Positions 4,795-25,991 of a DNA stretch of 64,000 nucleotides are shown piece by piece. The notes below the pieces were generated by a model. That model did not search any database and had not been told where the DNA came from. It saw only the letters and a program-made list of their open reading frames with translations. Each line of letters starts with the position of its first letter. The stretch's first letter is position 1. The stretch is from Bacilli bacterium. GTDB taxonomy: Bacteria > Bacillota_I > Bacilli_A > RF39 > UBA660. The position numbers and the translations under genes are program-made. Location: assembly GCA_017512495.1 (NCBI GenBank), contig JAFWGF010000049.1:5267-69266 (forward strand), written 5' to 3'.

Positions 4795-7545
4795 TTATGG
4801 CGTTTGTACATTACCACCCGAATCTGGTTGTGTAGGTGGATCTGGTGTTTCAGGTTCTGGATCAGGATCTTCATCGATTACTATAATAGGTTCATTTAAA
4901 GTAAATATTGCTGCTGCACTTTGAATATCATTATATGATTTATAAGTACCGATAACTTTATATGTACCATATGGACTACTAGGAGCAAACGTATACGATG
5001 TCTTATCTGTCCATGTAATCAATACATCATCTTTGTAGATATTATAACCAAATTTTCCATGATCATCACCAGTATCTAATGGTGAAACCGGAGACCATGA
5101 TAATGTTACCTTACCACCACCAGCTTCGCTTACATTTAAGTTTCCTGGAGCAGGAATTCTATAACTTGCAGTATCGTATTCAGTTGGTTCAGTTCCCTTC
5201 TTAAAGAACTCACTAATTGCAGGTCCTCCTGGAGCTGCTAATTTAGGAGGATTAGTTCCGGGAGCAATTGATATTCTAACAACACTAGCAGGTTGTTTAA
5301 ATTCTTCTCTGTTTCCTTCCATAGCACCAGAAGCAACTAAGGCATTGAATAATCTATCCTTTTGAATAGTTGCTGGTATATTATGTAATACATATCCTTG
5401 AGCAATAGATTCTTTTGTGAAGTCATCATATCCATACCACATACCAATAGTTGTCTTAGTTGAATAACCGATAACCCATGAATCACGAATTGCATCACTA
5501 GGCATATTATATCTATTCATAGTGTTTTCATCAAAGTTAGTAGTACCAGTTTTACAAGCTACATTACGAGGAGTACCACCAGTTAATGAAACATCTTGTA
5601 AAACGCTAGATATCATGAAAGCAGTTGCATCAGACATAACTTGTCTTTTATTCTCTTTATGTTCTACTGTTTTACCTGTTTGTCTAAATACTATTTTATT
5701 AACAGAATATGGTTCATTATAGTAACCACCGTTTGAGAATGCAGCATAAGCACCAGCCATTTGAATTGGTGATACACCAGTAAATGCTCCAATTGAATGA
5801 GCTTCATGTAATGCAATAGTATCTTTAACATCACTTGTATTATCTTTGTTATAACAATTATCTTTATCTTTATTATATATGTAACCACTAGGACATAACT
5901 CAGGAATTATACCTAAACCAGTAACAAACTCTTTAATCTTTTCATTTTTAACTTGTTGGAAAGCTTTAAGTGCAGGAATATTACGAGAAGCAGATAAAGC
6001 TCTTCTTAAAGTAATATTACCAAAGTATCCACCATCCCAGTTCTTTATAGATACTCCATTTGAATATGTATATGGAGCGTCATTAAATGGATGACCAGTA
6101 GACCAGTTATTATATTCTATTCCAGGGCCATAATCAAATAATGGTTTAGCAGTACTTCCAGGTTGTCTTTTAATCTGAGTAGCATAGTTAAATTGTGAAG
6201 CAGTGCTATTATTTCTAGAATTAATATTACGACCATTACCTATAGCTAATACTTTTCCTGTTTCAGATTCAATAACAGCTACACCAGTTTGAACTCTATC
6301 ATCAATCCAACTATATGTTTCACCAGCTAATACAGCATTTACTGCATTTTGTCTAGCTTTATCTAAATTAGTATATACAAGTAATGGAGTAGTATAAGGA
6401 TTAACTCCATATTTATCTTGAACTTCTTCTACAACTGTATCTATATATCCTTGATATTTATTTTCTACAGAAGTATTAACTTCAGCAGTTAATGATTCTA
6501 CTGGAATAGCATTAGCAACTTTTTCTTCTTCAGCAGTGATATAACCAGCTCTCTTCATTAGATATAAAACAGTTTGTCTTCTAGCTGTAGCATTCTTTGG
6601 ATTAGCAGTAGGTCTATAGAAATTAGGTGATTTAAACATACCAGCTATTATTGCTGCTTCACTTAAGTTTAATTCACCAACGCTTTTTCCAAAATAAGCA
6701 TTAGCAGCTTCCTCAACTCCATAGATATTTCCACCTAAGAAGTGATTATTAACATAATATTCAATTATTTGTTCCTTAGTATATTCTTTTTCTAATCTAA
6801 ATACAGCTAAGTAAACATCTTCAAATTTACGAATAATACCAGTAACACCAGAAGTTTTTTGACCATACTTATCAGTGAAACTATTCTTAACAACTTGCAT
6901 TGATAATGTAGAAGCTCCACCAGCATTAGAATTACCAGTTAATTGACCAACTGTCGCTTTAAAGAAACGAGGTGCATCTAATCCATTATGTTGAAAGAAT
7001 CTTGAATCTTCAGTAGCTATAATAGCATCTACTAATACTTCAGGTAATTCATCATAAGTTACTTTTTCTCTCTTTTCAGAACCTAGTTTAGCTATTTCAG
7101 CTCCATCTTTATCATAAATTCTAGTTATTTCAGCAGTGTTTAATTTACCTTTTTCAAACTTAGGATCAGCATTTACTTTGATATATGCAATAAATAAACT
7201 AAATGCTGTTAAACCGATAATTCCACAAATTAGGAATAGTATTAATAAAATATTTAATATTTTCTTAGTTTTTCTATTTCCTGGAATTCTATAAATTAAA
7301 ACCCATACACATATTAGAATACCAATAATTACAGCAAATAATGCTGTAGCAATAAAACCTAGTGCCATATAGCAAGCTAATAATAAAGCTACAATTGCCA
7401 ACCCTAAAGCTATCTTACCAGTATTACTACTTTTCTTTTTTATTTTAGTAGTTCTTCTTCCTACACTATTAACTGGACGTGTAGCATTACTTGATTTTTT
7501 ACTAGTCTTAACTTGACTTCTTCTTTTTACCTTTTTTTGTGCCAT
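4795..7545 (-). CDS. ponA: Penicillin-binding protein 1A (bifunctional glycosyltransferase/transpeptidase) with a C-terminal FN3-like domain and a Pro/Asp-rich tail
   Basis: N-terminal TM, GT51 motifs (EDxRFxxHxG), transpeptidase SxxK/SxN/KTG. recU-ponA operon arrangement. Confidence 0.9.
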   Translation of the reverse strand: MAQKKVKRRSQVKTSKKSSNATRPVNSVGRRTTKIKKKSSNTGKIALGLAIVALLLACYMALGFIATALFAVIIGILICVWVLIYRIPGNRKTKKILNILLILFLICGIIGLTAFSLFIAYIKVNADPKFEKGKLNTAEITRIYDKDGAEIAKLGSEKREKVTYDELPEVLVDAIIATEDSRFFQHNGLDAPRFFKATVGQLTGNSNAGGASTLSMQVVKNSFTDKYGQKTSGVTGIIRKFEDVYLAVFRLEKEYTKEQIIEYYVNNHFLGGNIYGVEEAANAYFGKSVGELNLSEAAIIAGMFKSPNFYRPTANPKNATARRQTVLYLMKRAGYITAEEEKVANAIPVESLTAEVNTSVENKYQGYIDTVVEEVQDKYGVNPYTTPLLVYTNLDKARQNAVNAVLAGETYSWIDDRVQTGVAVIESETGKVLAIGNGRNINSRNNSTASQFNYATQIKRQPGSTAKPLFDYGPGIEYNNWSTGHPFNDAPYTYSNGVSIKNWDGGYFGNITLRRALSASRNIPALKAFQQVKNEKIKEFVTGLGIIPELCPSGYIYNKDKDNCYNKDNTSDVKDTIALHEAHSIGAFTGVSPIQMAGAYAAFSNGGYYNEPYSVNKIVFRQTGKTVEHKENKRQVMSDATAFMISSVLQDVSLTGGTPRNVACKTGTTNFDENTMNRYNMPSDAIRDSWVIGYSTKTTIGMWYGYDDFTKESIAQGYVLHNIPATIQKDRLFNALVASGAMEGNREEFKQPASVVRISIAPGTNPPKLAAPGGPAISEFFKKGTEPTEYDTASYRIPAPGNLNVSEAGGGKVTLSWSPVSPLDTGDDHGKFGYNIYKDDVLITWTDKTSYTFAPSSPYGTYKVIGTYKSYNDIQSAAAIFTLNEPIIVIDEDPDPEPETPDPPTQPDSGGNVQTP

Positions 7546-8130
7546 TTATATACCTCCAATTAAGTCATCAATTATTTTTAAATAATCAACTCTTGGCTTA
7601 TAATTATCTTTTATTAAATAAGCGTTTTTTTCAAAATACTCTAATGGAATAGATTTTCTAGTTTCATTATCAATAAAACTTACTAAATCTTTGATAAATA
7701 ATAAATATGTATTATTTAAAGTAGTAAATCTAACTATTAGAAAAGCTATACCACCATGTCTTTCGATATTTTTTAAATGTTCAATTTGATGATTATGGAT
7801 ATTATTAAGAGAAAAAGATGTTTTACTTTTTGTCTCCTTAGCCTCAAAGTCAATATATTTCCCTTTATATATTCCATTATAATCAGTAGTTGATGGTATT
7901 GTATAAAAAGCTTCTTTAATAACTGTTTTATCACGTGATGGATAATCTACTTTAGTAACTTTTATTGGTGTAGGCTTTTTATAAATATAGGCTTTATCAA
8001 TGTCACGATAGTACTCATTTGTTATATTTAAATCAGCCTCTAAAGACATACCTCTATTCCTATGATTTATTTGTTTTAAGACAGGATTAGAATTATTATC
8101 TTTTTTTATACCACCAGGATAGTTCATCAC
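7546..8130 (-). CDS. recU: Holliday junction resolvase RecU
   Basis: RecU-like sequence immediately upstream of ponA on the same strand (conserved recU-ponA operon). Confidence 0.85.
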   Translation of the reverse strand: MMNYPGGIKKDNNSNPVLKQINHRNRGMSLEADLNITNEYYRDIDKAYIYKKPTPIKVTKVDYPSRDKTVIKEAFYTIPSTTDYNGIYKGKYIDFEAKETKSKTSFSLNNIHNHQIEHLKNIERHGGIAFLIVRFTTLNNTYLLFIKDLVSFIDNETRKSIPLEYFEKNAYLIKDNYKPRVDYLKIIDDLIGGI

Positions 8131-8756: not shown

Positions 8757-8769
8757 AGACAATTAATAT

Positions 8770-9105
8770 ATAGACAAACGCTGGAGTCCTAGAGACTCTT
8801 GAGGAAAGTCCATGCTCACACAATCTGCGATGATTGTAGTGTTCGTGCTCAGGGATAACCTGAGGTAGCCTACTTGTAGGTTAACGGCGGATATTATTCC
8901 TAAGTCTTTGATATGGAATAATCCGTAAAGTGCCGCAGTGACGATACTTTTCGAAAGGAAAGAGTGAAACGTGGTAAACCCCGCGAGTGAGAAACCCAAA
9001 TTTGGTAGGGGAGTTCTAACAAAGGAATTGAACGGAGTTAGAAACTAATTTATTAGTAGATAAATGTTTGTCGCCCGAAAGGGTACAGAACGTGGCTTAT
9101 TTATA
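8770..9105 (+). ncRNA. rnpB: RNase P RNA, type B (ends approximate)
   Basis: Conserved P4 strands GAGGAAAGTCCATGCTC and ACAGAACGTGGCTTAT. Also GTAAACCCCGCGAGTGAGAAACCCAAATTTGGTAGGGGA, which closely matches Bacillus rnpB. Located downstream of gpsB as in B. subtilis. Confidence 0.85.
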
Positions 9106-10280: not shown

Positions 10281-10305
10281 GAAAAATAATAAGTGTAAAA
10301 TTATA

Positions 10306-10319
10306 AAACAATTGTTCGA
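10306..10319 (+). promoter_or_regulatory. Candidate LexA (Cheo) box upstream of recA
   Basis: aAACaattGTTCga is close to the Gram-positive consensus CGAACnnnnGTTCG. It overlaps a TTGCAA-17-TACAAT promoter at 10327-10355. Confidence 0.4.
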
Positions 10320-10388
10320 AAAAGTATTGCAATTTAGAAAAATGTATTATACAATTAATTTGTAAGTTATTTACAAGGAGGAAAATAA

Positions 10389-11429
10389 ATGGCTGTAAAT
10401 AAAGATAATTCTAAAGATAAGGATAAAGCTTTAGAACAAGTATTAAATGATATTGAAAAACAATTTGGTAAAGGCTCAATAATGAAATTAGGAGAAAATA
10501 AACACATGAAAGTTGATGTAGTATCTAGTGGTGTTCTATCACTTGATATTGCTTTAGGTGTAGGTGGTTATCCTAAAGGTAGAATTATTGAAATATATGG
10601 ACCAGAATCTAGTGGTAAAACTACTTTTGCACTACATGCAATTGCTGAACATCAAAAACTAGGTGGTAGAGCCGCTTTTATTGATGCAGAACATGCATTA
10701 GATCCTGTTTATGCAGAGAGATTAGGAGTTAATATAGATGACTTATTACTTTCTCAACCAGATACAGGCGAACAAGCATTAGAAATATGTGATGCTTTGG
10801 TTAGAAGTGAAGCTATTAGTATAGTTGTAATTGACTCAGTTGCTGCTTTGGTTCCACAAGCTGAAATAGATGGTGAAATGGGTGATTCTCACGTTGGATT
10901 ACAAGCTAGATTAATGTCACAAGCATTAAGAAAACTAAATGGTACAATTAGTAAGACTAATACTACAGTAATTTTTATTAATCAATTAAGAGAAAAAGTA
11001 GGGGTAATGTTTGGTAATCCTGAAACTACTACTGGTGGTAGAGCACTTAAATTCTATTCAAGTGTTAGATTAGAAATTAGAAGAAGTGAACAATTAAAAA
11101 TGGGTGATGGAGTAGTTGGTAACAAGACAAGTGTTAAAGTTGTTAAAAACAAGGTGGCTCCACCATTTAAATCATGTGTAGTAGATATCATGTATGGAGA
11201 AGGAGTAAGTAGAGAAGGAGAAGTAATAGACTTAGCTAGTGAAGCAGGTATTCTTGATAAAACCGGTGCTTGGTATTCATACAATGGAGAGAAACTAGGG
11301 CAAGGAAAAGAAAATGTTAAATTATTATTAAAAGATACACCAGAATTATGCTCTGAATTAGAAGAAAAAGTTAGAGAGTATTATGATGTTACAATCTCTA
11401 ATAGTAAAGAAGAGAAAAAAGAAAAATAA
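10389..11429 (+). CDS. recA: Recombinase RecA
   Basis: Unmistakable RecA sequence (GPESSGKTT, Walker motifs, L2 loop). Confidence 0.95.
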
Positions 11430-11491
11430 AATATTTTTCTTTTTTTATATGATATAATCTGACTATGCATATATTTTTAGTAGGTGATATT

Positions 11492-12874
11492 ATGAAGATT
11501 AATAAACTATTAGAGACAGATTTAGATATAAATATAAAGGGAATTACTGATGATTCAAGATTAGTAAAAGATGGTTATATTTTCGTAGCTACTAAAGGAT
11601 ATAATGTTGATCATTATGATTATATTGATGATGCCATTAAAAATGGATGTGTATTTTTAGTTGCTGATAGAGAAGTATCTTGTAATATTCCACATAAAAT
11701 TGTGGATAATTTAGATGAGTGTTATAGACAATTATGTTTAAAGTTTTATGACATAGATATTGATGAGTTCAAATTAATAGGTGTTACTGGAACTGATGGT
11801 AAGACAACTACGACTACATTAATAAAAGAATTAATAAAAGATTGTGCTTATCTTGGTACTAATGGATTAACTATTGAAGATAAAACTATTTCTACTAGTA
11901 ATACTACTCCTTGTATTTCTGAATTATATAAAGATTTAAGCTTAGTAAAAAAAGCTAAATTAAATACTGTTTCTATGGAAGTTTCAAGTGAAGCGTTATT
12001 GCATAATAGAGTAGATGGCTTTAAGTTTGATATAATAGCTTTTACTAATGTAACAGGAGATCATTTGAATGTTCATAAAACTTTTAATAATTATTTGAAT
12101 TGTAAGCTTAAATTATTAGATTATTTAAAAGAAGATGGGATCGTTATTGTTAATGGTGATGATGATAATTTACATAATATAAAACATAATAATAAATATA
12201 CTTTTGGTTTTAATACTAATAATGATTTTATTATTAAGGATGTTAAATACGATAATTTGACTAAAATAACAGTTATAAATAAAAAAAATAAATATATAAT
12301 TAATAGTCCTTTAAAAGGAAAATATAATGTTTATAATGTAGTTCTTGCTTTTGTTACTTGTCTACTTTATGGAATAAATGAGGAAACGATTATAGAACGA
12401 ATTAAAAATATAAAGCCAATTAGTGGTAGATGTGAGTTTTTAGATTTTGGACAAGATTTTGATATTGTATTAGACTATGCCCATACAATTAATGGTATTA
12501 GAAGTATCTTAACTGATTTCAAAGAGTATAATTATAATAGAATTATTACAGTAACTGGATGTGCTGGTGGAAGAGAAAAGGAAAAGAGACCTATTATTGG
12601 TAAAATGGTTATTGATAATAGTGATATTTCAATATTTACAATGGATGATCCTCGAAAAGAAAGTGTTGATGAGATAATTGATCAAATGGTAGAAGATGAA
12701 AAAGATTATATTAGAATCATTGATCGAGAGGAAGCTATTCATTATGCTTTCGATATAGCTGAAAAAGGTGATGTAGTATTAATATTAGGCAAAGGAAGAG
12801 ATAATTACATGGCTATCGGCGATAAAAAAATTGAATATAATGACTATACTACTATTAGTAAGTATTTTACGTAA
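11492..12874 (+). CDS. Mur ligase family protein, MurE-like (UDP-MurNAc-tripeptide synthetase type). Contains DDPR near the C-terminus
   Basis: Mur ligase P-loop GVTGTDGKTTT and a MurE-like N-terminal domain. Start moved to ATG 11492 (AGGTGAT RBS). Confidence 0.6.
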   Translation: MKINKLLETDLDINIKGITDDSRLVKDGYIFVATKGYNVDHYDYIDDAIKNGCVFLVADREVSCNIPHKIVDNLDECYRQLCLKFYDIDIDEFKLIGVTGTDGKTTTTTLIKELIKDCAYLGTNGLTIEDKTISTSNTTPCISELYKDLSLVKKAKLNTVSMEVSSEALLHNRVDGFKFDIIAFTNVTGDHLNVHKTFNNYLNCKLKLLDYLKEDGIVIVNGDDDNLHNIKHNNKYTFGFNTNNDFIIKDVKYDNLTKITVINKKNKYIINSPLKGKYNVYNVVLAFVTCLLYGINEETIIERIKNIKPISGRCEFLDFGQDFDIVLDYAHTINGIRSILTDFKEYNYNRIITVTGCAGGREKEKRPIIGKMVIDNSDISIFTMDDPRKESVDEIIDQMVEDEKDYIRIIDREEAIHYAFDIAEKGDVVLILGKGRDNYMAIGDKKIEYNDYTTISKYFT

Positions 12875-18997: not shown

Positions 18998-19060
18998 AAT
19001 TGCTTAGGCAATTCTTTTATTTTATAAAACTCTTTGTTATAATACATATAGGTGATTACA

Positions 19061-20266
19061 ATGGGTTTATTTAACAAAATAAAAAATATGTTTAAATCAT
19101 ATGACGAAGAGGAAAAATTAGTTGATGGAGAACAAGAAGAATTAAAAGAAGAATCTGCTGAAGAATCAGAAGAAATTGAAGAAGAATTAGCAGAAGAAAA
19201 AGAGATAGAAGAAGAACCAGTTGATGGACTTAATCCTCTTGCGATAGATCAAGAAGAGCCAACTCTTGAAGTAAAAGAAGAAAAACCTGAGAAAAAAGAG
19301 AAGAAATTATTTAAAAAGAAAGATAAAAAAGAAGAAGAAAAGAAATCAGTTAAGATATATGAAAAAGGTCTTACTAAATCTCGTCAAGGGTTTGTTTCTA
19401 AATTAGCTAATTTAACTAACAAGTATAACAAAGTTACCGAAGAGTATTTTGAAGAATTAGAAGAAATACTAATTATGGCTGATATTGGAGTTAATACTGT
19501 AATGGATTTCATGGACAGATTAAAAGATAGAGTTAAATCTGAAAATATTGAGGATCCTAATGAATTAAAAGAGATAATTGTCGATGAATTGTTTATTATC
19601 TACGTTAATGACGAAGTGTTAAGCAATAAAATCAATTATAATGAAAATGGTCCTACAGTTATCTTATTTATTGGAGTTAATGGAGTAGGTAAAACCACTA
19701 CTATTGCGAAGATTGCTAATAAATTGAAAGATGAAGGAAAGAAAGTCCTAATGGTAGGAGCAGATACATTTAGAGCAGGCGCTGTTGAACAACTTCGTGA
19801 ATGGAGTGAAAGAGTAGGAGTAGGCTTTTTTGGAAAAGAAGGAAGCGATCCTGCTAGTGTAGTATATGATGGAATAACTATGGCTAAAGAAGAGGATTAT
19901 GATATTGTTTTAATTGATACTGCTGGTAGATTGCAGAATAAAGTTAATCTAATGAAAGAATTAGAAAAGATGAATAAAGTCATTGATAATTTAATTGAAG
20001 GTGGAGCAAGTGAAACATTACTTGTATTAGATGCTACTACTGGGCAAAATGGTATTAGTCAAGCTAATGCTTTTAAAGAAATAACTAATATTACAGGTAT
20101 AGTTTTAACTAAATTAGATGGTACTGCTAAGGGTGGTATAGTTCTAGCTATTAAAGAAAGTGTTGGAATACCAGTAAAATACATTGGTTTGGGTGAAACT
20201 AAAGATGATTTGCAAACATTTGATATTGAAAAATATATATATGGTTTGTTTAAGGATATGATGTAA
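19061..20266 (+). CDS. ftsY: Signal recognition particle receptor FtsY
   Basis: Acidic N-terminal region, NG domain with GVNGVGKTTT and DTAGR. Start moved to ATG 19061. Confidence 0.9.
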   Translation: MGLFNKIKNMFKSYDEEEKLVDGEQEELKEESAEESEEIEEELAEEKEIEEEPVDGLNPLAIDQEEPTLEVKEEKPEKKEKKLFKKKDKKEEEKKSVKIYEKGLTKSRQGFVSKLANLTNKYNKVTEEYFEELEEILIMADIGVNTVMDFMDRLKDRVKSENIEDPNELKEIIVDELFIIYVNDEVLSNKINYNENGPTVILFIGVNGVGKTTTIAKIANKLKDEGKKVLMVGADTFRAGAVEQLREWSERVGVGFFGKEGSDPASVVYDGITMAKEEDYDIVLIDTAGRLQNKVNLMKELEKMNKVIDNLIEGGASETLLVLDATTGQNGISQANAFKEITNITGIVLTKLDGTAKGGIVLAIKESVGIPVKYIGLGETKDDLQTFDIEKYIYGLFKDMM

Positions 20267-20551
20267 ATGGAAAAGAAAAATAAAAAGAAAAGTAAAATTA
20301 ATGAGTATAATATTTTAGGAATTAATGTACAAATAGTTTTAACTATTATAGTCTGTATATTTGGACTACTTAGCCTAATTGTTAGTTCAAAGTTTCTAAA
20401 GTTTTTATATTTGTTTATTGGATTAGATTTACTTATAATGGGCTATAATAATGAAAGAATCTTCAGAAAAGAAGGTTTAACGATATTTTATATGATTTCA
20501 GGAATAGTTTTAGTAATTTATTCAATATTAAAATTTATAGGGGTGTTATAA
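20267..20551 (+). CDS. Small hypothetical membrane protein (94 aa, 2-3 TM) between ftsY and ylxM
   Basis: Translationally coupled (TAAATG) to ftsY. Hydrophobic. Confidence 0.45.
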   Translation: MEKKNKKKSKINEYNILGINVQIVLTIIVCIFGLLSLIVSSKFLKFLYLFIGLDLLIMGYNNERIFRKEGLTIFYMISGIVLVIYSILKFIGVL

Positions 20552-20845
20552 ATGGAAGAAGTTATTTATTATAATAATTTGTATGATTTTTATGGGAATT
20601 TATTAACAGAAAAACAAAGACAATATTTTGAAGATTATTATTTTAATAATCTAAGTTTTAGTGAAATGGCTGAAACCTATAATGTTAGTAGAAATGCTGT
20701 TTTTAAACAACTTCATATTGTTACTGACAAATTGGAGGAATATGAAAGTAAGTTAAAACTATTAGAAAAAAAAGAAAAACTACTTAAAGTAATTGATACA
20801 GTTACTGATAAAAAATTAAAAGAAAAACTAGAAGAATTAATATAG
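20552..20845 (+). CDS. ylxM: UPF0122 / YlxM putative HTH protein of the SRP operon
   Basis: LTEKQRQYFE...LSFSEMAE..NVSRNAV matches the YlxM sigma-region-4-like HTH family found between ftsY and ffh. Confidence 0.8.
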   Translation: MEEVIYYNNLYDFYGNLLTEKQRQYFEDYYFNNLSFSEMAETYNVSRNAVFKQLHIVTDKLEEYESKLKLLEKKEKLLKVIDTVTDKKLKEKLEELI

Positions 20846-20854
20846 GTGATATAG

Positions 20855-21283
20855 GTGTTTAAAGTAGGCAAGATAAAACAACTTCCAAATGAAGAAGTTA
20901 TAATAAAAAAAGTTAAGCATGAAGCAGCTCACTTTGAAAAAGGTAAAAGTATTTACAAAGATATAGAATCTTTATCATTCGCAGTATATAGTGATAATTA
21001 TTCTTTCAAATTTATGATGAAAGATCCTTTGAATAGTCTATTAGATATACCAATGAGAGAAAATATTGATTTTAAAGATTATCTTTTCACGGGAGAAACA
21101 TTTTTCAATATCAAAGATAAAACTAGTTATATGGATCCATGTATGGATATAAAAATATATAGATATCTTGAAAATAGTTATGAAATAACGGTTCATTTTG
21201 ATACTAGTGAACTAAATAGTATGGTTGATTATAATGGGTTTTTACAGTTTAGTTTTGATTTAAATGACTATTTAGATAAGTAG
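20855..21283 (+). CDS. Hypothetical 142-aa protein, no recognisable family. Contains one HEAAH string
   Basis: GTG start 9 nt after the ylxM stop. Followed by a terminator. Coding-like composition. Confidence 0.5.
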   Translation: MFKVGKIKQLPNEEVIIKKVKHEAAHFEKGKSIYKDIESLSFAVYSDNYSFKFMMKDPLNSLLDIPMRENIDFKDYLFTGETFFNIKDKTSYMDPCMDIKIYRYLENSYEITVHFDTSELNSMVDYNGFLQFSFDLNDYLDK

Positions 21284-21290
21284 TATTTTA

Positions 21291-21325
21291 CAAAGTATTA
21301 AATTAATACTTTGTTTTTTTTATTT
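21291..21325 (+). terminator. Intrinsic terminator
   Basis: caaagtattaa/ttaatactttg hairpin followed by T8. Confidence 0.6.
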
Positions 21326-21329
21326 TACC

Positions 21330-21358
21330 TTGAAAAAAGATACAAATATTAGTATAAT
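21330..21358 (+). promoter_or_regulatory. Near-consensus sigma-A promoter (TTGAAA-17-TATAAT) driving the HerA-like gene
   Basis: Hexamers and spacing read from the sequence. Confidence 0.55.
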
Positions 21359-21395
21359 CTATAGTATGATAGGTTAGTGTAAAGAGGGGATATTA

Positions 21396-23396
21396 ATGTT
21401 TGACAGAATAACTTATATTAGTGATGATTCTTGTACTGTTAAAATGCAAGAAAATGCAGAAATTACAATGAATTTAATGAACTTACACTTAGTATTTGAA
21501 GATAGTGAGAAGAAAATATTAGGTGAAGTAGATGATATGGATGGAGCTAATTTAAAGGCTAGATTCTTAGGTGAAATAGTTGGAGATAAACTAGTTGGTG
21601 GTACTATTAGAAAACCATCATTAGATGCAAAGATTAGAGTAATAGATCAATCTGAGATACCTTTAATTACTGGAGCAGATGTTAGTGGATTTATGAAATT
21701 AGGAGTAAGTCCATTCTATAATGATTTTCCAGTATTCTTAGATGTAAATAATTTCTTTAGTAATCATTTTGCAATCTTTGGTAATACTGGTTCAGGTAAA
21801 TCTTGTGGAACTACTCGTTTATTTCAAAATATGTTTCATGATCAAAGATTAAATCCATTCAAAGCTAATGTATTTATATTTGATTCATCTGGTGAGTATT
21901 ACAATGCTTTTTCTAATTTAAATAGTATTAATCCTAAATATAATTATCGTTATATTAGTACTAATGAAGTAGAAGGATTAGGAGAAAAGTTAAGATTACC
22001 GGTATATTTATTAAATAAAGATGATTTAGCTTTATTATTACAATGTACATCTCACTCACAATTACCTATTATTGAAAGAATGTTAAAACTTGCTTTAGTA
22101 TTTAGTCAAAATGATGTTGATTCTAATGCTTATAAAAATCACTTGATTGCTAAAGCAATTATGACAATTTTATATACTAATGAGACAGCACCTAATAAGA
22201 GAAATGAAATATTCTCTATCTTAGCTAGCTGTTCTACTCCAGAATTTAATTTGGAAGCACCTGTTCAAGGAATAGGTTATGTTCGTAAATTTAGAGAATG
22301 TTTCTTAATTGATAATTCTGGTAACTTTACTGAAAGTGTTTTAATGAATCAATACCTAGATTCATTTATCAAAGAAGAGTATGATGATTTTGAACCTAGT
22401 ACAGGAGTTTACTATAACTTAGATACTTTAGAAAAAGCTCTTAACTTTACTTTAATTAGTGAAGGTTGGTTAAGAAATGAACAAACTTATGGTGATTCAG
22501 TAACAATAAGAGTTAGATTACATGCTTTAATAGTTGGAGAAAATGCTAAATACTTTGATGTAGCTGATTATGTTTCTCTAGAGCAATATTTATCATCATT
22601 AGTTGTTCAAGATGGTAAAAAATATCAAATAGTTAATATTAACTTAAATGATATTGATGATGAATTTGCTAAAGTATTAACTAAGATTTATTCAAGATTA
22701 ATATTTGATTTCTGTAAAGGTTTAAAGGATAGAGCAAGTATTCCGTTCCATATAATTTTGGAAGAAGCTCATAGATATATTCAAAGTGACCATGATAGAT
22801 TCTTATTTGGTTATAATATCTTTGAAAGAATTGCTAAGGAAGGTCGTAAATATGGAGTTATCTTAGGAATAATCACTCAAAGACCGGTTGAACTTTCAGA
22901 TAATGTTATTTCACAATGTACAAACTTCTTAATCTTTAAGATTAACCACCCTATGGATATAGAGTATATTCGTAAGACGATACCGCATATTACAGATGAT
23001 ATTATTGAGAAACAAAAAGCTTTACAAGCTGGTACTTGTTTGGGATTTGGTTTAGGATTTAGAATTCCACTAATTGTTAGAATGGAAATGCCTGATCCAG
23101 CACCATTATCTGGAAACTGTGATGTTGTTACTATTTGGAATGGAGCTGGTAATTCATTAAGTGAACCTACACCAGCACCACAAGAAACACCTAGTACTCC
23201 ACAACAAACTCAAAGTGTTCCTCAAATAATGAGTGAACAAGGAGCTCAATCAAACGATGGAATTTCAACAGGATCTGTAGTTGAACAACAAGAAGAGCTA
23301 AGTGAAGATAATGGTCCTATTCCTGAAATAAATAATGAATCAGAAATTGGTCCTAAAATAGATAGTGGAGAACCTCTAATTCAATTCGTTGAATAG
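21396..23396 (+). CDS. HerA/FtsK-superfamily (DUF87-like) P-loop ATPase with an N-terminal HAS-barrel-like region and a ~110-aa disordered P/Q/S/E-rich C-terminal tail
   Basis: Walker A FGNTGSGKS, Walker B-like HIILEEAHRY, ITQRP...NHP arginine-finger/sensor segment. Beta-rich N-terminal ~95 aa. Confidence 0.7.
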   Translation: MFDRITYISDDSCTVKMQENAEITMNLMNLHLVFEDSEKKILGEVDDMDGANLKARFLGEIVGDKLVGGTIRKPSLDAKIRVIDQSEIPLITGADVSGFMKLGVSPFYNDFPVFLDVNNFFSNHFAIFGNTGSGKSCGTTRLFQNMFHDQRLNPFKANVFIFDSSGEYYNAFSNLNSINPKYNYRYISTNEVEGLGEKLRLPVYLLNKDDLALLLQCTSHSQLPIIERMLKLALVFSQNDVDSNAYKNHLIAKAIMTILYTNETAPNKRNEIFSILASCSTPEFNLEAPVQGIGYVRKFRECFLIDNSGNFTESVLMNQYLDSFIKEEYDDFEPSTGVYYNLDTLEKALNFTLISEGWLRNEQTYGDSVTIRVRLHALIVGENAKYFDVADYVSLEQYLSSLVVQDGKKYQIVNINLNDIDDEFAKVLTKIYSRLIFDFCKGLKDRASIPFHIILEEAHRYIQSDHDRFLFGYNIFERIAKEGRKYGVILGIITQRPVELSDNVISQCTNFLIFKINHPMDIEYIRKTIPHITDDIIEKQKALQAGTCLGFGLGFRIPLIVRMEMPDPAPLSGNCDVVTIWNGAGNSLSEPTPAPQETPSTPQQTQSVPQIMSEQGAQSNDGISTGSVVEQQEELSEDNGPIPEINNESEIGPKIDSGEPLIQFVE

Positions 23397-23398
23397 TT

Positions 23399-23428
23399 AA
23401 AATAGTGCTTTAACACTATTTTTCTTCA
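23399..23428 (+). terminator. Intrinsic terminator after the ATPase gene
   Basis: aatagtg-ctttaa-cactatt followed by a T-rich run. Confidence 0.5.
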
Positions 23429-23462
23429 GAATAAATATGTTATAATCGTAATAGGTGATTTT

Positions 23463-24770
23463 ATGTTTGAAAGTTTAGGCGATAGATTACAAAATGCATT
23501 GCATAAAATAAAAGGTTATGGAAAAATTACAGAAGAAAACATCTCAGAAATGATGAGAGAAATAAGATTAGCTCTATTAGAAGCAGATGTTAATTATCAA
23601 GTAGTTAAAGAATTTACTAGTAAAGTAAAAGAAAAAGCTCTTGGAGAAGAAGTTGCTTCTAGTATTAATCCGGGAGATTTATTTGTTAAAATTGTTAAAG
23701 ATGAATTAACTGAGTTACTAGGTGGAGAAAGTGAACCACTAAATATGAAAGGTAATCCTGCTACTTTAATGTTAGTAGGTCTTCAAGGTTCAGGTAAAAC
23801 TACTACTATTGCTAAGTTAGCTAATTTCTTGAGAAAGAAGCATAATAAAAAGCCTTTATTAGTAGCTTGTGATGTTTATAGACCAGCTGCTATTGATCAA
23901 TTAAAACAACTAGGTAAACAACTTAATATGGAAGTTTACGAAGAAGGAAAAAAGGATCCCGTAGAGATTGCTAAGAATGCTATTAATTATGCTAAGGAAA
24001 ACAAATTTGATTATGTTTTAATAGATACTGCTGGTAGATTACATATCGATGAAGAATTAATGCAAGAATTAGAAAATATTAATAAAGAAGTTAAACCTGA
24101 TGAAATTCTTTTAGTAATAGATTCTATGATGGGTCAAGATGCTATTAATGTAATTACTGGTTTTAATGATCAATTACCACTTACTGGAGTAATACTTACT
24201 AAATTAGATGGTGATACTAGAGGTGGTGTAGCTTTATCAGTTAGACATTTAACTAATGTACCAATTAAGTTTATTGGTGTATCTGAAAAGTTAGATGGTT
24301 TAGATTCTTTTGATCCTGAAAGAATGGCTGGAAGAATCTTAGGGATGGGAGATATAGTTTCTTTAGTTGAGAAGGCTACTGAAAGTATTGATGAAAAAGA
24401 AGCAGAAAAGACAGCTAAGAGAATGCAACAGGGTAAATTTGATTTAGAAGACTTTTTATCAACACTAAAACAAATGAAGAAATTAGGACCATTAGAAAAT
24501 TTAATTAAACTAATACCGGGAGCTAAAAAGATGGGACTTAATAATGTTCAAATAGATCCTAAACAAATGGCTCATATTGAAGCGATAGTCTTATCAATGA
24601 CTCCTAAAGAAAGACGTAATCCTGATATTATTAAAGCTAGTCGCAAGACTAGAATAGCTAAAGGAAGTGGAACTTCTGTACAAGAAGTAAATAAATTACT
24701 ACAACAATTTGATCAAATGAAGAAAATGATGAAACAAATGAGTAATGGAAATATGAAATTACCATTTTAG
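23463..24770 (+). CDS. ffh: Signal recognition particle protein Ffh
   Basis: NG domain GLQGSGKTTT, DTAGR, Met-rich M domain. Confidence 0.95.
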   Translation: MFESLGDRLQNALHKIKGYGKITEENISEMMREIRLALLEADVNYQVVKEFTSKVKEKALGEEVASSINPGDLFVKIVKDELTELLGGESEPLNMKGNPATLMLVGLQGSGKTTTIAKLANFLRKKHNKKPLLVACDVYRPAAIDQLKQLGKQLNMEVYEEGKKDPVEIAKNAINYAKENKFDYVLIDTAGRLHIDEELMQELENINKEVKPDEILLVIDSMMGQDAINVITGFNDQLPLTGVILTKLDGDTRGGVALSVRHLTNVPIKFIGVSEKLDGLDSFDPERMAGRILGMGDIVSLVEKATESIDEKEAEKTAKRMQQGKFDLEDFLSTLKQMKKLGPLENLIKLIPGAKKMGLNNVQIDPKQMAHIEAIVLSMTPKERRNPDIIKASRKTRIAKGSGTSVQEVNKLLQQFDQMKKMMKQMSNGNMKLPF

Positions 24771-24779
24771 GGAGGAAAT

Positions 24780-24965
24780 ATGAAAGAATTTATTAAAAAA
24801 ATTAGTAAAGGCTCAAAAGCAGCATTATTTTTAGAAATTTTGCTATTAGCTCAAGTGATTTTCTATGTTTATACATATGTAGGTATTCCAGAATGTAACC
24901 ATGATAATCATCAATATCCTGGACATATTACAGATTACAGTGGTGGTGATAATTATGGCAAATAA
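24780..24965 (+). CDS. Small hypothetical membrane protein (61 aa)
   Basis: Strong RBS GGGAGG + ATG. One TM. Confidence 0.4.
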   Translation: MKEFIKKISKGSKAALFLEILLLAQVIFYVYTYVGIPECNHDNHQYPGHITDYSGGDNYGK

Positions 24966-25635
24966 AGATGTTAAACAAAAAAATAGTGCAGGAAGATTAA
25001 TTACAATACTTATTGTTTTAAATTTACTTGCTCCAATTGTTTTCTTTTGGCTTATATGGCCTGCTATTAGATGTAGTATAAATACTCAATGGAAGCCTAT
25101 TATTTATGTTTATCCTACAGAAGATACTGATGTAACAATAAAAGTATCTAATCCTGATGATTTAACTACTACTTATCCTAAATATAATAATGAATGGAAA
25201 GTAAAAGCATTAACTGATGGTACTTTAATAGATAGTAATAATAAAAAATATTATGCATTATATTGGGAAAGTGAGAATAATAAAAAGAATCCTATTAAAG
25301 AAGATGGCTTTGTAGTAAAAGGTGAAGATAGTGCTAGCTTCTTAGAAAAGAAATTAGAAATATTAGGATTAAATTATAAAGAACGTAATGAATTTATAAT
25401 GTATTGGTTACCTAAATTAGAAAGTAATAAATATAACTATATTAGATTCCAAACAATGGATGAAATTAATGATGATATGGGACTTGATATTGATCCTAAA
25501 CCAGATACATTAATTAGAGTAAGAATGGAATATAAATCATTGGATAAGAAAGTTAAAGTAAAAGAGCAAAAACTTTCTAAAGTAGAAAGAACTGGTTATA
25601 CAGTAGTAGAATGGGGAGGAACTAATATTAATTAG
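24955..25635 (+). CDS. Hypothetical membrane-anchored protein
   Basis: Start ATG 24955 (MANKDV). N-terminal TM. Confidence 0.5.
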   Translation: MANKDVKQKNSAGRLITILIVLNLLAPIVFFWLIWPAIRCSINTQWKPIIYVYPTEDTDVTIKVSNPDDLTTTYPKYNNEWKVKALTDGTLIDSNNKKYYALYWESENNKKNPIKEDGFVVKGEDSASFLEKKLEILGLNYKERNEFIMYWLPKLESNKYNYIRFQTMDEINDDMGLDIDPKPDTLIRVRMEYKSLDKKVKVKEQKLSKVERTGYTVVEWGGTNIN

Positions 25636-25679: not shown

Positions 25680-25991
25680 ATGTATAATAATGATTTATTT
25701 CAAAATATGAATATGGAAAATACTGTAACGGGTAATAATAATTATATTAATAATGAGATGGATGTTGATGTCAATATGATGAATAATAATATGGGACCAG
25801 TTACTGGTGAAGGTGTAAAAGAAAGAATAATCAACAGGACTTTTGTTCATGAAGTTCCTCATACTTGTCCTATTCATACTCGTATTATTAATCACCACGT
25901 CTATAAACATACATATAGACCAGTATATACTTGTTCAGAAGAAAATGTTTGTAGCAATGTTCAATGTGGCTCTTGCTGTCAATTTAACTAA
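25680..25991 (+). CDS. CotD-like (inner spore coat protein D family) His/Cys-rich protein
   Basis: N/M-rich N-terminus, then HEVPHTCPIHTRIINHHVYKHTY...CxxxxCxxC resembling CotD-family repeats. Terminator at 25991-26015. Confidence 0.5.
   Translation: MYNNDLFQNMNMENTVTGNNNYINNEMDVDVNMMNNNMGPVTGEGVKERIINRTFVHEVPHTCPIHTRIINHHVYKHTYRPVYTCSEENVCSNVQCGSCCQFN

Follow-up and report, generated by a model that had tools for sequence, protein, structure and literature searches.

A predicted 666-aa ATPase of the HerA clade is encoded between ylxM and ffh, in the signal recognition particle (SRP) operon of a Bacilli bacterium (GCA_017512495.1, contig JAFWGF010000049.1). We analysed this locus within a 64,000-nt stretch of the contig, here called the window, whose positions are used throughout unless another locus is named; the genes from ftsY to ffh lie on its plus strand. 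The reading that we favour, with a probability of about 0.65, is that the ATPase is a partner-less, vertically inherited member of the HerA clade and a core gene product of an uncultured, low-GC gut and rumen lineage of Bacilli, in which it would play a constitutive role. The lack of a linked partner, a constraint similar to that on ffh, the placement in a core operon, a conserved motif in the C-terminal tail and a paralogue beside division genes suggest that HerA has an undescribed cellular job in bacteria.

Family, domains and tail of the ATPase

Several collections of models identified the protein, encoded at 21396..23396, as a relative of HerA. The Pfam model of the HerA central domain (PF01935, DUF87) scored 72.1 bits against a cut-off of 23.2 bits (E 9.4e-20), ten PADLOC HerA models matched below 1e-28, the best of them (PDLC04102, 5.4e-105) continuously over aa 94-584, and the NCBIfam HerA models matched at 1e-24 to 5e-47 (HerA_antiphage_2, 5.1e-47; HerA_Thermprot, 3.7e-36). 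HerA chains in the PDB (9c1m, 8xau, 8yho and 4d2i) were matched at 1e-26 to 5e-42 by the single sequence and at 1e-50 to 3e-70 by a family profile, the top relative being 9c1m (5.1e-42 and 2.7e-70, respectively), which comes from a HerA-DUF4297 system. The solved relatives comprise HerA-DUF4297 (9c1m and 8xau), Sir2-HerA (8yho, 8wiv and 8j4u) and HerA-NurA (4d2i and 9x1l) proteins. Judged from these matches, the 666-aa protein belongs to the HerA clade within the FtsK-HerA superfamily, and the Pfam, PADLOC and PDB profile results agree with the first-pass annotation, which had called a HerA-type ATPase from its motifs. All of the NCBIfam equivalogs (HerA_antiphage, HerA_antiphage_2, HerA_Thermprot and helicase_HerA) were missed, with scores of 86.6-160.9 bits against cut-offs of 800-970 bits (160.9/850, 135.8/800, 124.6/800 and 86.6/970), and therefore the ATPase is related to those equivalogs without belonging to them.

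The top named models and structures belong to defence HerA proteins (HerA_antiphage_2, PADLOC HerA, 9c1m and 8xau), as might be expected if the locus were a two-gene anti-phage module in the SRP operon, with the 142-aa protein encoded just upstream acting as the effector or sensor partner of HerA. A score of 161 bits against an NCBIfam cut-off of 850 bits argues against this explanation, and 'anti-phage HerA' matches in PADLOC and NCBIfam do not alone prove a defence system.

Matches to conjugative and FtsK-type ATPases were weak and below threshold. The models TrwB_AAD_bind (18.6 vs 20.5 bits), AAA_10 (18 vs 27.5 bits) and FtsK_SpoIIIE (PF01580, 15.4 vs 24 bits) covered the P-loop region only (aa 111-188), and NCBIfam conju_CD1110 matched at 1.8e-3, with 16.6 vs 325 bits. 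Membership in the VirB4/TraC or FtsK/SpoIIIE families, an outcome that the first-pass annotation had allowed for, is thus not indicated, since these models fall below their cut-offs. The N-terminus appears to form a beta-barrel, not transmembrane helices, and no transmembrane segment was found anywhere in the ATPase. These weak matches would be the trace left by a mobile element if the gene were the remnant of a conjugative VirB4/TraC-type or FtsK-like coupling ATPase, but the HerA models matched orders of magnitude better, no integrase, relaxase or other type IV secretion gene was present near the ATPase among the annotated ORFs (open reading frames) of the window, synteny is stable, and there is no shift in GC content. 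We regard the chance of such an origin as practically negligible.

The domain layout was read from profile alignments, a structure model and residue conservation. The family profile aligned end to end with the HerA subunit of a Sir2-HerA system, 8yho (positions 3-565 to residues 5-544), with the N-terminal barrel covered, and with 8wiv over positions 20-213 (residues 42-238). Together with beta-strands in an AlphaFold2 (AF2) model, the 8yho alignment, beginning at position 3 and residue 5, points to an N-terminal HAS-barrel-like domain over approximately aa 1-95 (21396..21680), as the first-pass annotation had proposed. In the model, aa 1-88 consist of seven beta-strands with a predicted local distance difference test score (pLDDT) of 60-85, the sole confident part, and this all-beta region is as expected for a HAS-barrel. 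The full-length model, built from 25 sequences that were all at least 78% identical, was poor (pLDDT 40.4) because only such close sequences were supplied. Between the Walker motifs the model was helical over aa 208-355, at a pLDDT below 50, and the gene can be described provisionally as a HAS-barrel, a RecA-like core with a helical insertion, and a disordered tail.

The three motifs that had been noted earlier, GNTGSGKS, ILEEAH and ITQRP, are all in the translation (aa 129-136, 454-459 and 493-497). Conservation of the Walker motifs was measured over 18 proteins at 30-89% identity. In Walker A (21780..21803), G129, G132, G134 and K135 were invariant; in the Walker B segment IILEEAH (aa 453-459; 22752..22772), A458 was invariant, and E456 and H459 were nearly so. 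The segment from GRKYG (aa 483-487) to ITQRP (22842..22886) is a candidate arginine-finger or sensor segment, in which G483, K485 and G487 were invariant across clades and R484 nearly so, and Q495 and R496 were invariant among close relatives only. We also tried to map the DNA-contacting residues R284 and K287 of 8xau onto the ATPase and dropped the attempt, the insertion subdomain being unaligned.

The core is followed by an acidic, P/S/E/Q-rich tail (aa 582-666; 23139..23393), which its composition suggests is disordered. A P/Q/S/E-rich tail had been described in the first-pass annotation at a length of approximately 110 aa; the tail is there, at approximately 85 aa. Tails of this family are rich in P, S, V, E, A and D and nearly without K, R, H, Y and W. 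Their length is 84-290 aa among close homologues and reaches 433 aa in one locus (L009). They are present in the subclade of the window and sporadic elsewhere, and are absent from the deeper ylxM-linked members, whose proteins have 582-606 aa. Comparison of C-termini revealed a short linear motif at the end of the tail, EPLIQFVE in the window protein (23370..23393). The pattern [PASTG][LIVT][LIVM]x[LFI] occurred within the last 35 aa of 55 of the 73 distinct C-termini, as compared to 6.1 +/- 2.2 in shuffled tails, and an ending of acidic residues and Phe was found in 52 of the 73, with 0.4 expected. The consensus is approximately (E/Q)PL(I/L)x(L/F)(V/S), an acidic run and DF(S/E), of which the window protein has a short form (...GEPLIQFVE); the long tails of L006 and L009 repeat xLVx(L/F)-type motifs many times. 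In SSB and FtsZ, disordered linkers likewise end in a conserved docking peptide. By its sequence, the tail may be a flexible tether or regulator that ends in a docking peptide.

Conservation of the locus, the paralogue and the search for a partner

A database search with the ATPase returned at least 8000 relatives at E <=0.001, the best 120 of which were all proteins of 'Bacilli bacterium' metagenome-assembled genomes (MAGs) at 77% identity or more. A search of representative sequences gave 4257 matches, among which identity fell steeply from 72% to 43%, and more than 594 relatives turned up when contigs from one genome per species were scanned. Of these, the top 80 (40-77% identity) were all from uncultured gut or rumen MAGs of Bacilli type, their taxonomy being that of the labels on the MAG records: Bacilli, Tenericutes, Mollicutes or Bacillota bacterium, Coprobacillus sp. 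CAG:605, Ca. Onthousia and Ca. Coprosoma.

Synteny was assessed by tblastn and ORF clustering, with approximately 6 kb per side inspected at each locus. Every full-length match at 55% identity or more fell into a clade of 23 loci (the window, L001-L021 and L053), which was monophyletic in a neighbour-joining tree. In all 23, ftsY is followed by ylxM, with or without a small membrane-protein ORF (tm94) between them, and ylxM immediately precedes the ATPase gene or the 142-aa ORF; ffh usually comes next. The genes downstream in the clade vary: by eye, from their sequences, they were read as a lactate/malate-type dehydrogenase (ldh), small membrane proteins or an ABC transporter, where not ffh. 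The gap between ylxM and herA is 1-127 nt across loci without the 142-aa ORF and only 1-21 nt in the deeper branches, just enough for a ribosome-binding site (RBS); herA is therefore an old and integral part of the operon that has been passed on vertically. Compared with L001 and L002, the 585-aa core has identities of 97% and 91%, with nonsynonymous to synonymous rate ratios (dN/dS) of 0.05-0.11; the values for the same comparisons were 0.04 for ffh and 0.07-0.20 for ylxM. Thus, the ATPase core evolves about as slowly as ffh. Defence genes are expected to be patchy and mobile in distribution, and this expectation was contradicted by the stable synteny over 23 loci, by clades that are coherent in context, by dN/dS and by flat GC content (0.23-0.33 across the region, with no anomaly at the HerA-like gene).

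Outside this clade, the gene occupies other conserved settings. In a sister clade at 46-52% identity (L022-L024, L027-L031, L033, L034, L037, L038 and L043), herA lies in a conserved block, with gatCAB upstream in most loci and with tcdA (ThiF family), gpsA, rarA/mgsA and a gene for a Xer-type tyrosine recombinase downstream. The sister-clade settings, with gene families confirmed by Pfam and with varying upstream genes, were gatCAB...herA...tcdA-gpsA-rarA-xer, yqeG-yqeH-herA and herA-sepF-divIVA. The gene thus has different housekeeping surroundings in the sister clades, and its linkage to the SRP genes is clade-specific.

This distribution bears on the idea that the ATPase is linked to SRP function or secretion and acts, jointly with YlxM, Ffh and FtsY, on polypeptides or membrane targeting. 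Some members of the FtsK-HerA superfamily (EssC/EccC and VirB4/VirD4) do work in protein export. Linkage to ylxM in 23 of 23 loci would fit such a role, as would the tight packing in deep branches, where herA begins 1-21 nt after ylxM and is separated from ffh by 5 nt (L013) or 26 nt (L015). The other contexts in sister clades argue against it, and in the window itself a separate promoter and terminators set the gene apart from its neighbours. Furthermore, the protein has no transmembrane segment, its matches to secretion ATPases are below cut-off and, to our knowledge, all characterised HerA-clade proteins act on DNA. We consider a role in targeting or secretion to be quite unlikely.

The HerA ATPases characterised so far have a partner encoded next to them, which is NurA in end resection and Sir2 or DUF4297 in phage defence. 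We found no NurA, Sir2, DUF4297 or other conserved partner within approximately 6 kb per side at 84 loci, in line with the earlier observation that no known partner adjoins the gene in the window, and the neighbours conserved across these loci are housekeeping genes only. No Mre11/Rad50-like gene was found in the 10-14 kb around the 84 loci or among the annotated window ORFs, and approximately 45 window ORFs run through Pfam included no FtsK, NurA or defence gene. The first-pass annotation had left three options, a new partner, a partner elsewhere and a stand-alone variant, and the last of these fits best.

The second of these options would make the protein an end-resection helicase of the HerA-NurA type whose nuclease is encoded elsewhere in the genome. 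The matches to Sulfolobus HerA 4d2i (2.9e-33 with the single sequence, 3.1e-50 with the profile), to T. kodakarensis 9x1l and to HerA_Thermprot are consistent with this possibility; housekeeping-like conservation would suit repair, and recA, recX and recU all lie in the same 64-kb window. Known HerA-NurA pairs, however, adjoin each other in operons, no NurA-like or Mre11/Rad50 gene turned up around the loci surveyed, and the repair equivalogs were missed by far. An unlinked nuclease is therefore unlikely in our view. If the protein were merely a repair helicase of this kind, the result would be a routine improvement of annotation.

In related MAGs, sepF and divIVA are immediately preceded by a paralogous HerA-like gene, approximately 40% identical to that of the window. 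We refer to this copy, upstream of sepF-divIVA-dnaB, as HerA2, and to the copy in the SRP operon or in the rarA/Xer block of the sister clade as HerA1. HerA2 was found at L081 (6001-8901), L086 (6001-8970), L065, L068, L073, L076, L077, L079, L080 and L083, in the preserved order rluD-like, orf192, herA2, sepF, divIVA and dnaB-like; in L086-L088, a DnaB_2-family gene follows divIVA. Its family has at least 8000 relatives, the best 120 of which are all 66% identical or more. One MAG, SIG199, carries both genes, a ylxM-linked copy at 71% identity to that of the window (L006) and a copy at 40% upstream of sepF-divIVA (L081), and it is in this MAG only that co-occurrence was shown. The 64-kb window has no second HerA copy and no sepF, yqeH, gatB or rarA.

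The 142-aa ORF and the layout of the operon

The 142-aa ORF (20855..21283) has a GTG start codon and begins 9 nt past the stop codon of ylxM. Twelve homologues at 55-85% identity share 43 invariant residues and a conserved MFKVGKIK start. The start codon is GTG in the window (20855), L001 and L091 and ATG in L002 (5470) and L090 (910), and the RBS and the codons from the second onward are fixed despite this alternation. This pattern of sequence conservation indicates that the ORF is a real gene, not a chance ORF. Its RBS, read from the sequence as AGGTGA (20844..20849), overlaps the stop codon of ylxM and is kept as AGGTGA or AGGAGA in L001, L002, L090 and L091. The first-pass annotation had recognised no family for the product, and we likewise obtained no match to PADLOC, Pfam or NCBIfam. 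The protein has no N-terminal hydrophobic segment and is predicted to be a soluble, small beta-barrel, with no similarity to nucleases or NADases in the modelled fold. Its dN/dS of 0.22-0.33 corresponds to evolution approximately 3-5 times faster than that of the ATPase core (0.05-0.11).

The ORF was present in only 4 of the 23 ylxM-linked loci, namely the window and L001-L003, which form a tip subclade, and absent from the other 19; metagenome contigs L089-L092 carry it in the same placement. In L090, a further ORF of 187 aa (1351-1914), by eye acetyltransferase-like, lies between the 142-aa ORF and the HerA-like gene, and therefore the junction appears to accumulate accessory genes. More distant homologues at 40-43% identity (L093, 1869-2297; L094, 1313-1714; L095, 4001-4417) occur in unrelated neighbourhoods with neither HerA nor ylxM nearby, the copy in L093 adjoining a SpoIIGA-family peptidase gene (spoIIGA). 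The supposed orphan therefore belongs to a small uncharacterised family of Firmicute proteins. A phage origin was considered and dropped, as no relative was found in viral contigs. A metal-binding role for the HEAAH string was also dropped, since its positions vary among homologues (YEKAH, HEQGS, FEKGN and IEKGS); the earlier suspicion that the string is coincidental was well founded.

These results decide most of the case for an anti-phage pair. The two genes are neighbours with a common orientation and are both kept in the closest relatives, as a functional pair would be. Against this, the small ORF is missing from most ylxM-linked loci, a terminator and a promoter separate it from the ATPase gene in the window, another gene intervenes in L090, and homologues exist without HerA. 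In addition, the small protein is a predicted beta-barrel without nuclease or NADase similarity and without a PADLOC match, and the ATPase itself is syntenic, constrained like ffh and compositionally native. A defence module of this kind is very improbable. The 142-aa ORF is a young accessory gene, predicted to be co-transcribed with ylxM, and not a partner of the ATPase. The proposal of an inserted module with a new HerA partner does not hold, given that herA is vertically inherited and the small ORF is absent from most relatives, the outcome that the first-pass annotation itself had named as contrary to its proposal; comparison across genomes showed that the pair is not conserved together and that the SRP placement is specific to one clade.

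The surrounding operon retains the SRP genes ftsY, ylxM and ffh, all present, co-oriented and in canonical order according to Pfam. The transcription unit begins with ftsY (19052..20266), which encodes the SRP receptor (PF00448 SRP54, 8.3e-75, and PF02881 SRP54_N) and is syntenic in the 23 loci. It is followed without any intervening base by tm94 (20267..20551), an ORF for a predicted membrane protein of 94 aa, whose last base directly precedes the start of ylxM (20552..20845; UPF0122 helix-turn-helix protein, PF04297, 3.9e-26). No Pfam or NCBIfam family matched tm94. The ORF (cluster c4) is kept between ftsY and ylxM in 17 related loci, has a dN/dS of 0.24-0.35, and counts as a second gene added to the SRP operon in this lineage. 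The first-pass annotation had been right about the two extra genes between ylxM and ffh and had passed over this one.

The earlier gene coordinates and the two ORFs themselves were confirmed, and the predicted promoter and two terminators were also found. An 11-bp, A/T-rich stem with a 3-nt loop and a subsequent U-run (21290..21325; -9.1 kcal/mol, z -3.74), kept in L001, forms an intrinsic-terminator-like hairpin that is predicted to close the unit from ftsY to the 142-aa ORF. It was missed by a consensus scan because its stem has fewer than three G-C pairs. The HerA-like gene is preceded by a putative sigma-70-type promoter, TTGAAA-17-TATAAT (21330..21358), which matches the consensus at 11 of 12 positions, ties for the top score within the 6.7 kb scanned, and is conserved as TTGAAA or TTGTAA, 17 nt and TATAAT in seven loci (the window, L001, L002, L004, L006, L007 and L009). 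The apparent RBS, AAGAGGGG (21382..21389), stands 6 nt ahead of the ATG and is kept as AGAGGGG in L001, L002, L006 and L007. Downstream of the gene, a second terminator-like hairpin with a 9-bp stem and a T-rich run (23399..23429; -7.2 kcal/mol, z -2.9) contains an AATAGTG...CACTATTTTTT element kept in L001, L002, L004 and L007. A putative extended -10 element, TGTTATAAT (23438..23446), occurs ahead of ffh and is kept as TGTTATAAT or TGCTATAAT in L001, L002, L004, L007 and L009; it may act as the ffh promoter. The ffh gene itself (23463..24770; SRP54 protein) matched PF00448 (6.3e-78), PF02978 (SRP_SPB, 1.1e-35) and PF02881 (1.4e-24).

Other features were observed farther from the ATPase gene. 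Wider neighbours in the window include recA, rny, RNase J, rpoZ and recX, with recU likewise within the 64 kb. Directly after ffh, two ORFs of 61 aa (24780-24965) and 244 aa (24901-25635) overlap on the plus strand; both are kept in L002 and L003 (c62 and c63), the longer matches no Pfam family, and its start differs among genomes (226 vs 244 aa). An Asn/His/Cys-rich ORF of 103 aa (25680-25991, plus strand; ...HEVPHTCPIHTRIINHHVYKHTYRPVYTCSEE...CGSCCQFN), also without a Pfam match, lies downstream of ffh in seven related loci (c21), and may resemble CotD-type spore-coat proteins. At a site occupied by housekeeping genes in the window, a few genes downstream of ffh, L001 (GCA_017404885.1) carries a SMODS-domain gene (PF18144) and a DUF6602 gene (10301-11982, minus strand), which resembles a small insertion of defence type, close to the HerA locus but distinct from it. 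An RNase P RNA of class B (Rfam RF00011, 275.8 bits) was identified at 8765-9104 on the plus strand, flanked by the recU-ponA pair (7546-8130 and 4795-7545, minus strand) and by an HTH_25 (RodZ-like) gene.

Proposed role and comparison with known systems

We propose the following model. In the ancestor of the clade that includes the window, the gene would have been integral to the SRP operon, in the order ftsY-(tm94)-ylxM-herA-ffh. The subclade of the window would later have added a sigma-70-type promoter of its own, the flanking terminators, the putative extended -10 element ahead of ffh and the acidic disordered tail, and the same junction would also have gained the 142-aa gene, co-transcribed with ylxM. 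By analogy with solved HerA (PMC11291478), the ATPase would form a hexameric ring with a HAS-barrel collar on a RecA-like motor, and this ring would thread double-stranded DNA through its central pore by sequential hydrolysis of ATP. The hydrophobic-acidic motif at the end of the tail could tether or regulate the ring through another cellular protein. The role would be constitutive, in chromosome handling or repair, and not in phage defence; a function in housekeeping DNA translocation is inferred here from the characterised homologues.

Several points weigh against this view. The tree was constructed by neighbour joining with midpoint rooting and carries no support values, and the 'core' status of the gene rests on synteny and constraint, not on a census of presence and absence. 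The tight operon coupling to ylxM and ffh could mean a link to SRP rather than to DNA. A partner gene may be encoded elsewhere in the genome, as our survey covered approximately 6 kb on either flank of each locus. The pore geometry and the arginine finger are tentative, the full-length AF2 model being poor (pLDDT 40). A literature search yielded papers on defence and NurA only, and none that describes a housekeeping HerA from Bacilli, RF39 or Mollicutes or a ylxM-herA(-ffh) linkage. Finally, defence-type HerA has very low ATPase activity without its partner (PMC11291478), and the closest relatives of the ATPase are such subunits.

A more specific proposal is that HerA1 and HerA2 are both partner-less housekeeping chromosome motors, acting in segregation, dimer resolution or division in the manner of FtsK, SpoIIIE or SftA and recruited by the tail motif. 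The rarA/Xer and sepF/divIVA/dnaB contexts hint at a role in the chromosome or in division, and could also reflect phylogenetic inertia. We put this forward tentatively, as a possibility that we consider unlikely. If true, bacteria would provide an example of what has long been proposed, namely that HerA is functionally equivalent to FtsK, and the ATPase gives that old idea of an FtsK-like chromosome pump a concrete candidate, fixed in the core operons of hundreds of species in an abundant, uncultured gut lineage.

The locus can be compared with a number of known systems. It matches the canonical Bacillus-type SRP cluster (ftsY / ylxM-ffh) in genes, gene order and strand, but interleaves three extra genes (tm94, orf142 and herA). 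Two terminator-like hairpins and two promoter-like elements seem to divide it into three transcription units, predicted to be ftsY-tm94-ylxM-orf142, herA and ffh. The HerA of the HerA-DUF4297 anti-phage system (PDB 9c1m and 8xau; bioRxiv 10.1101/2024.10.24.620088; PMC11291478) is the best solved relative and shares the layout of HAS domain, RecA-like domain and helix bundle, the Walker motifs and a core end of the form ...P-x-P...W; in contrast to it, the window ATPase has no adjacent effector, is syntenic and constrained, and its family bears an extra acidic tail of 85 to more than 400 aa. Similarly, the end-to-end alignment with 8yho relates it to the Sir2-HerA anti-phage systems (PDB 8yho, 8wiv and 8j4u; PMC11514289, PMC11472057), but it has no Sir2 neighbour, lies in a housekeeping context and carries the tail. 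The HerA of HerA-NurA machines (Sulfolobus 4d2i, T. kodakarensis 9x1l and Deinococcus; PMC3326311, PMC9960219, PMC12977600) has a homologous ATPase core, and a constitutive role like theirs is plausible for the window ATPase, which differs in having no adjacent NurA, Mre11 or Rad50, in scoring below the cut-offs and in being bacterial and lineage-specific. FtsK, SpoIIIE and SftA belong to the same superfamily of ring pumps and are loosely comparable in joining a motor to a long, low-complexity, Pro-rich linker. In FtsK, the Pro/Gln-rich linker serves tethering. The window ATPase, unlike these proteins, has no N-terminal membrane domain, carries its motor ahead of a C-terminal linker, in the reverse order, and has a HAS-barrel, which FtsK does not; its paralogue HerA2, beside the division genes sepF and divIVA, is a further point of likeness to them.

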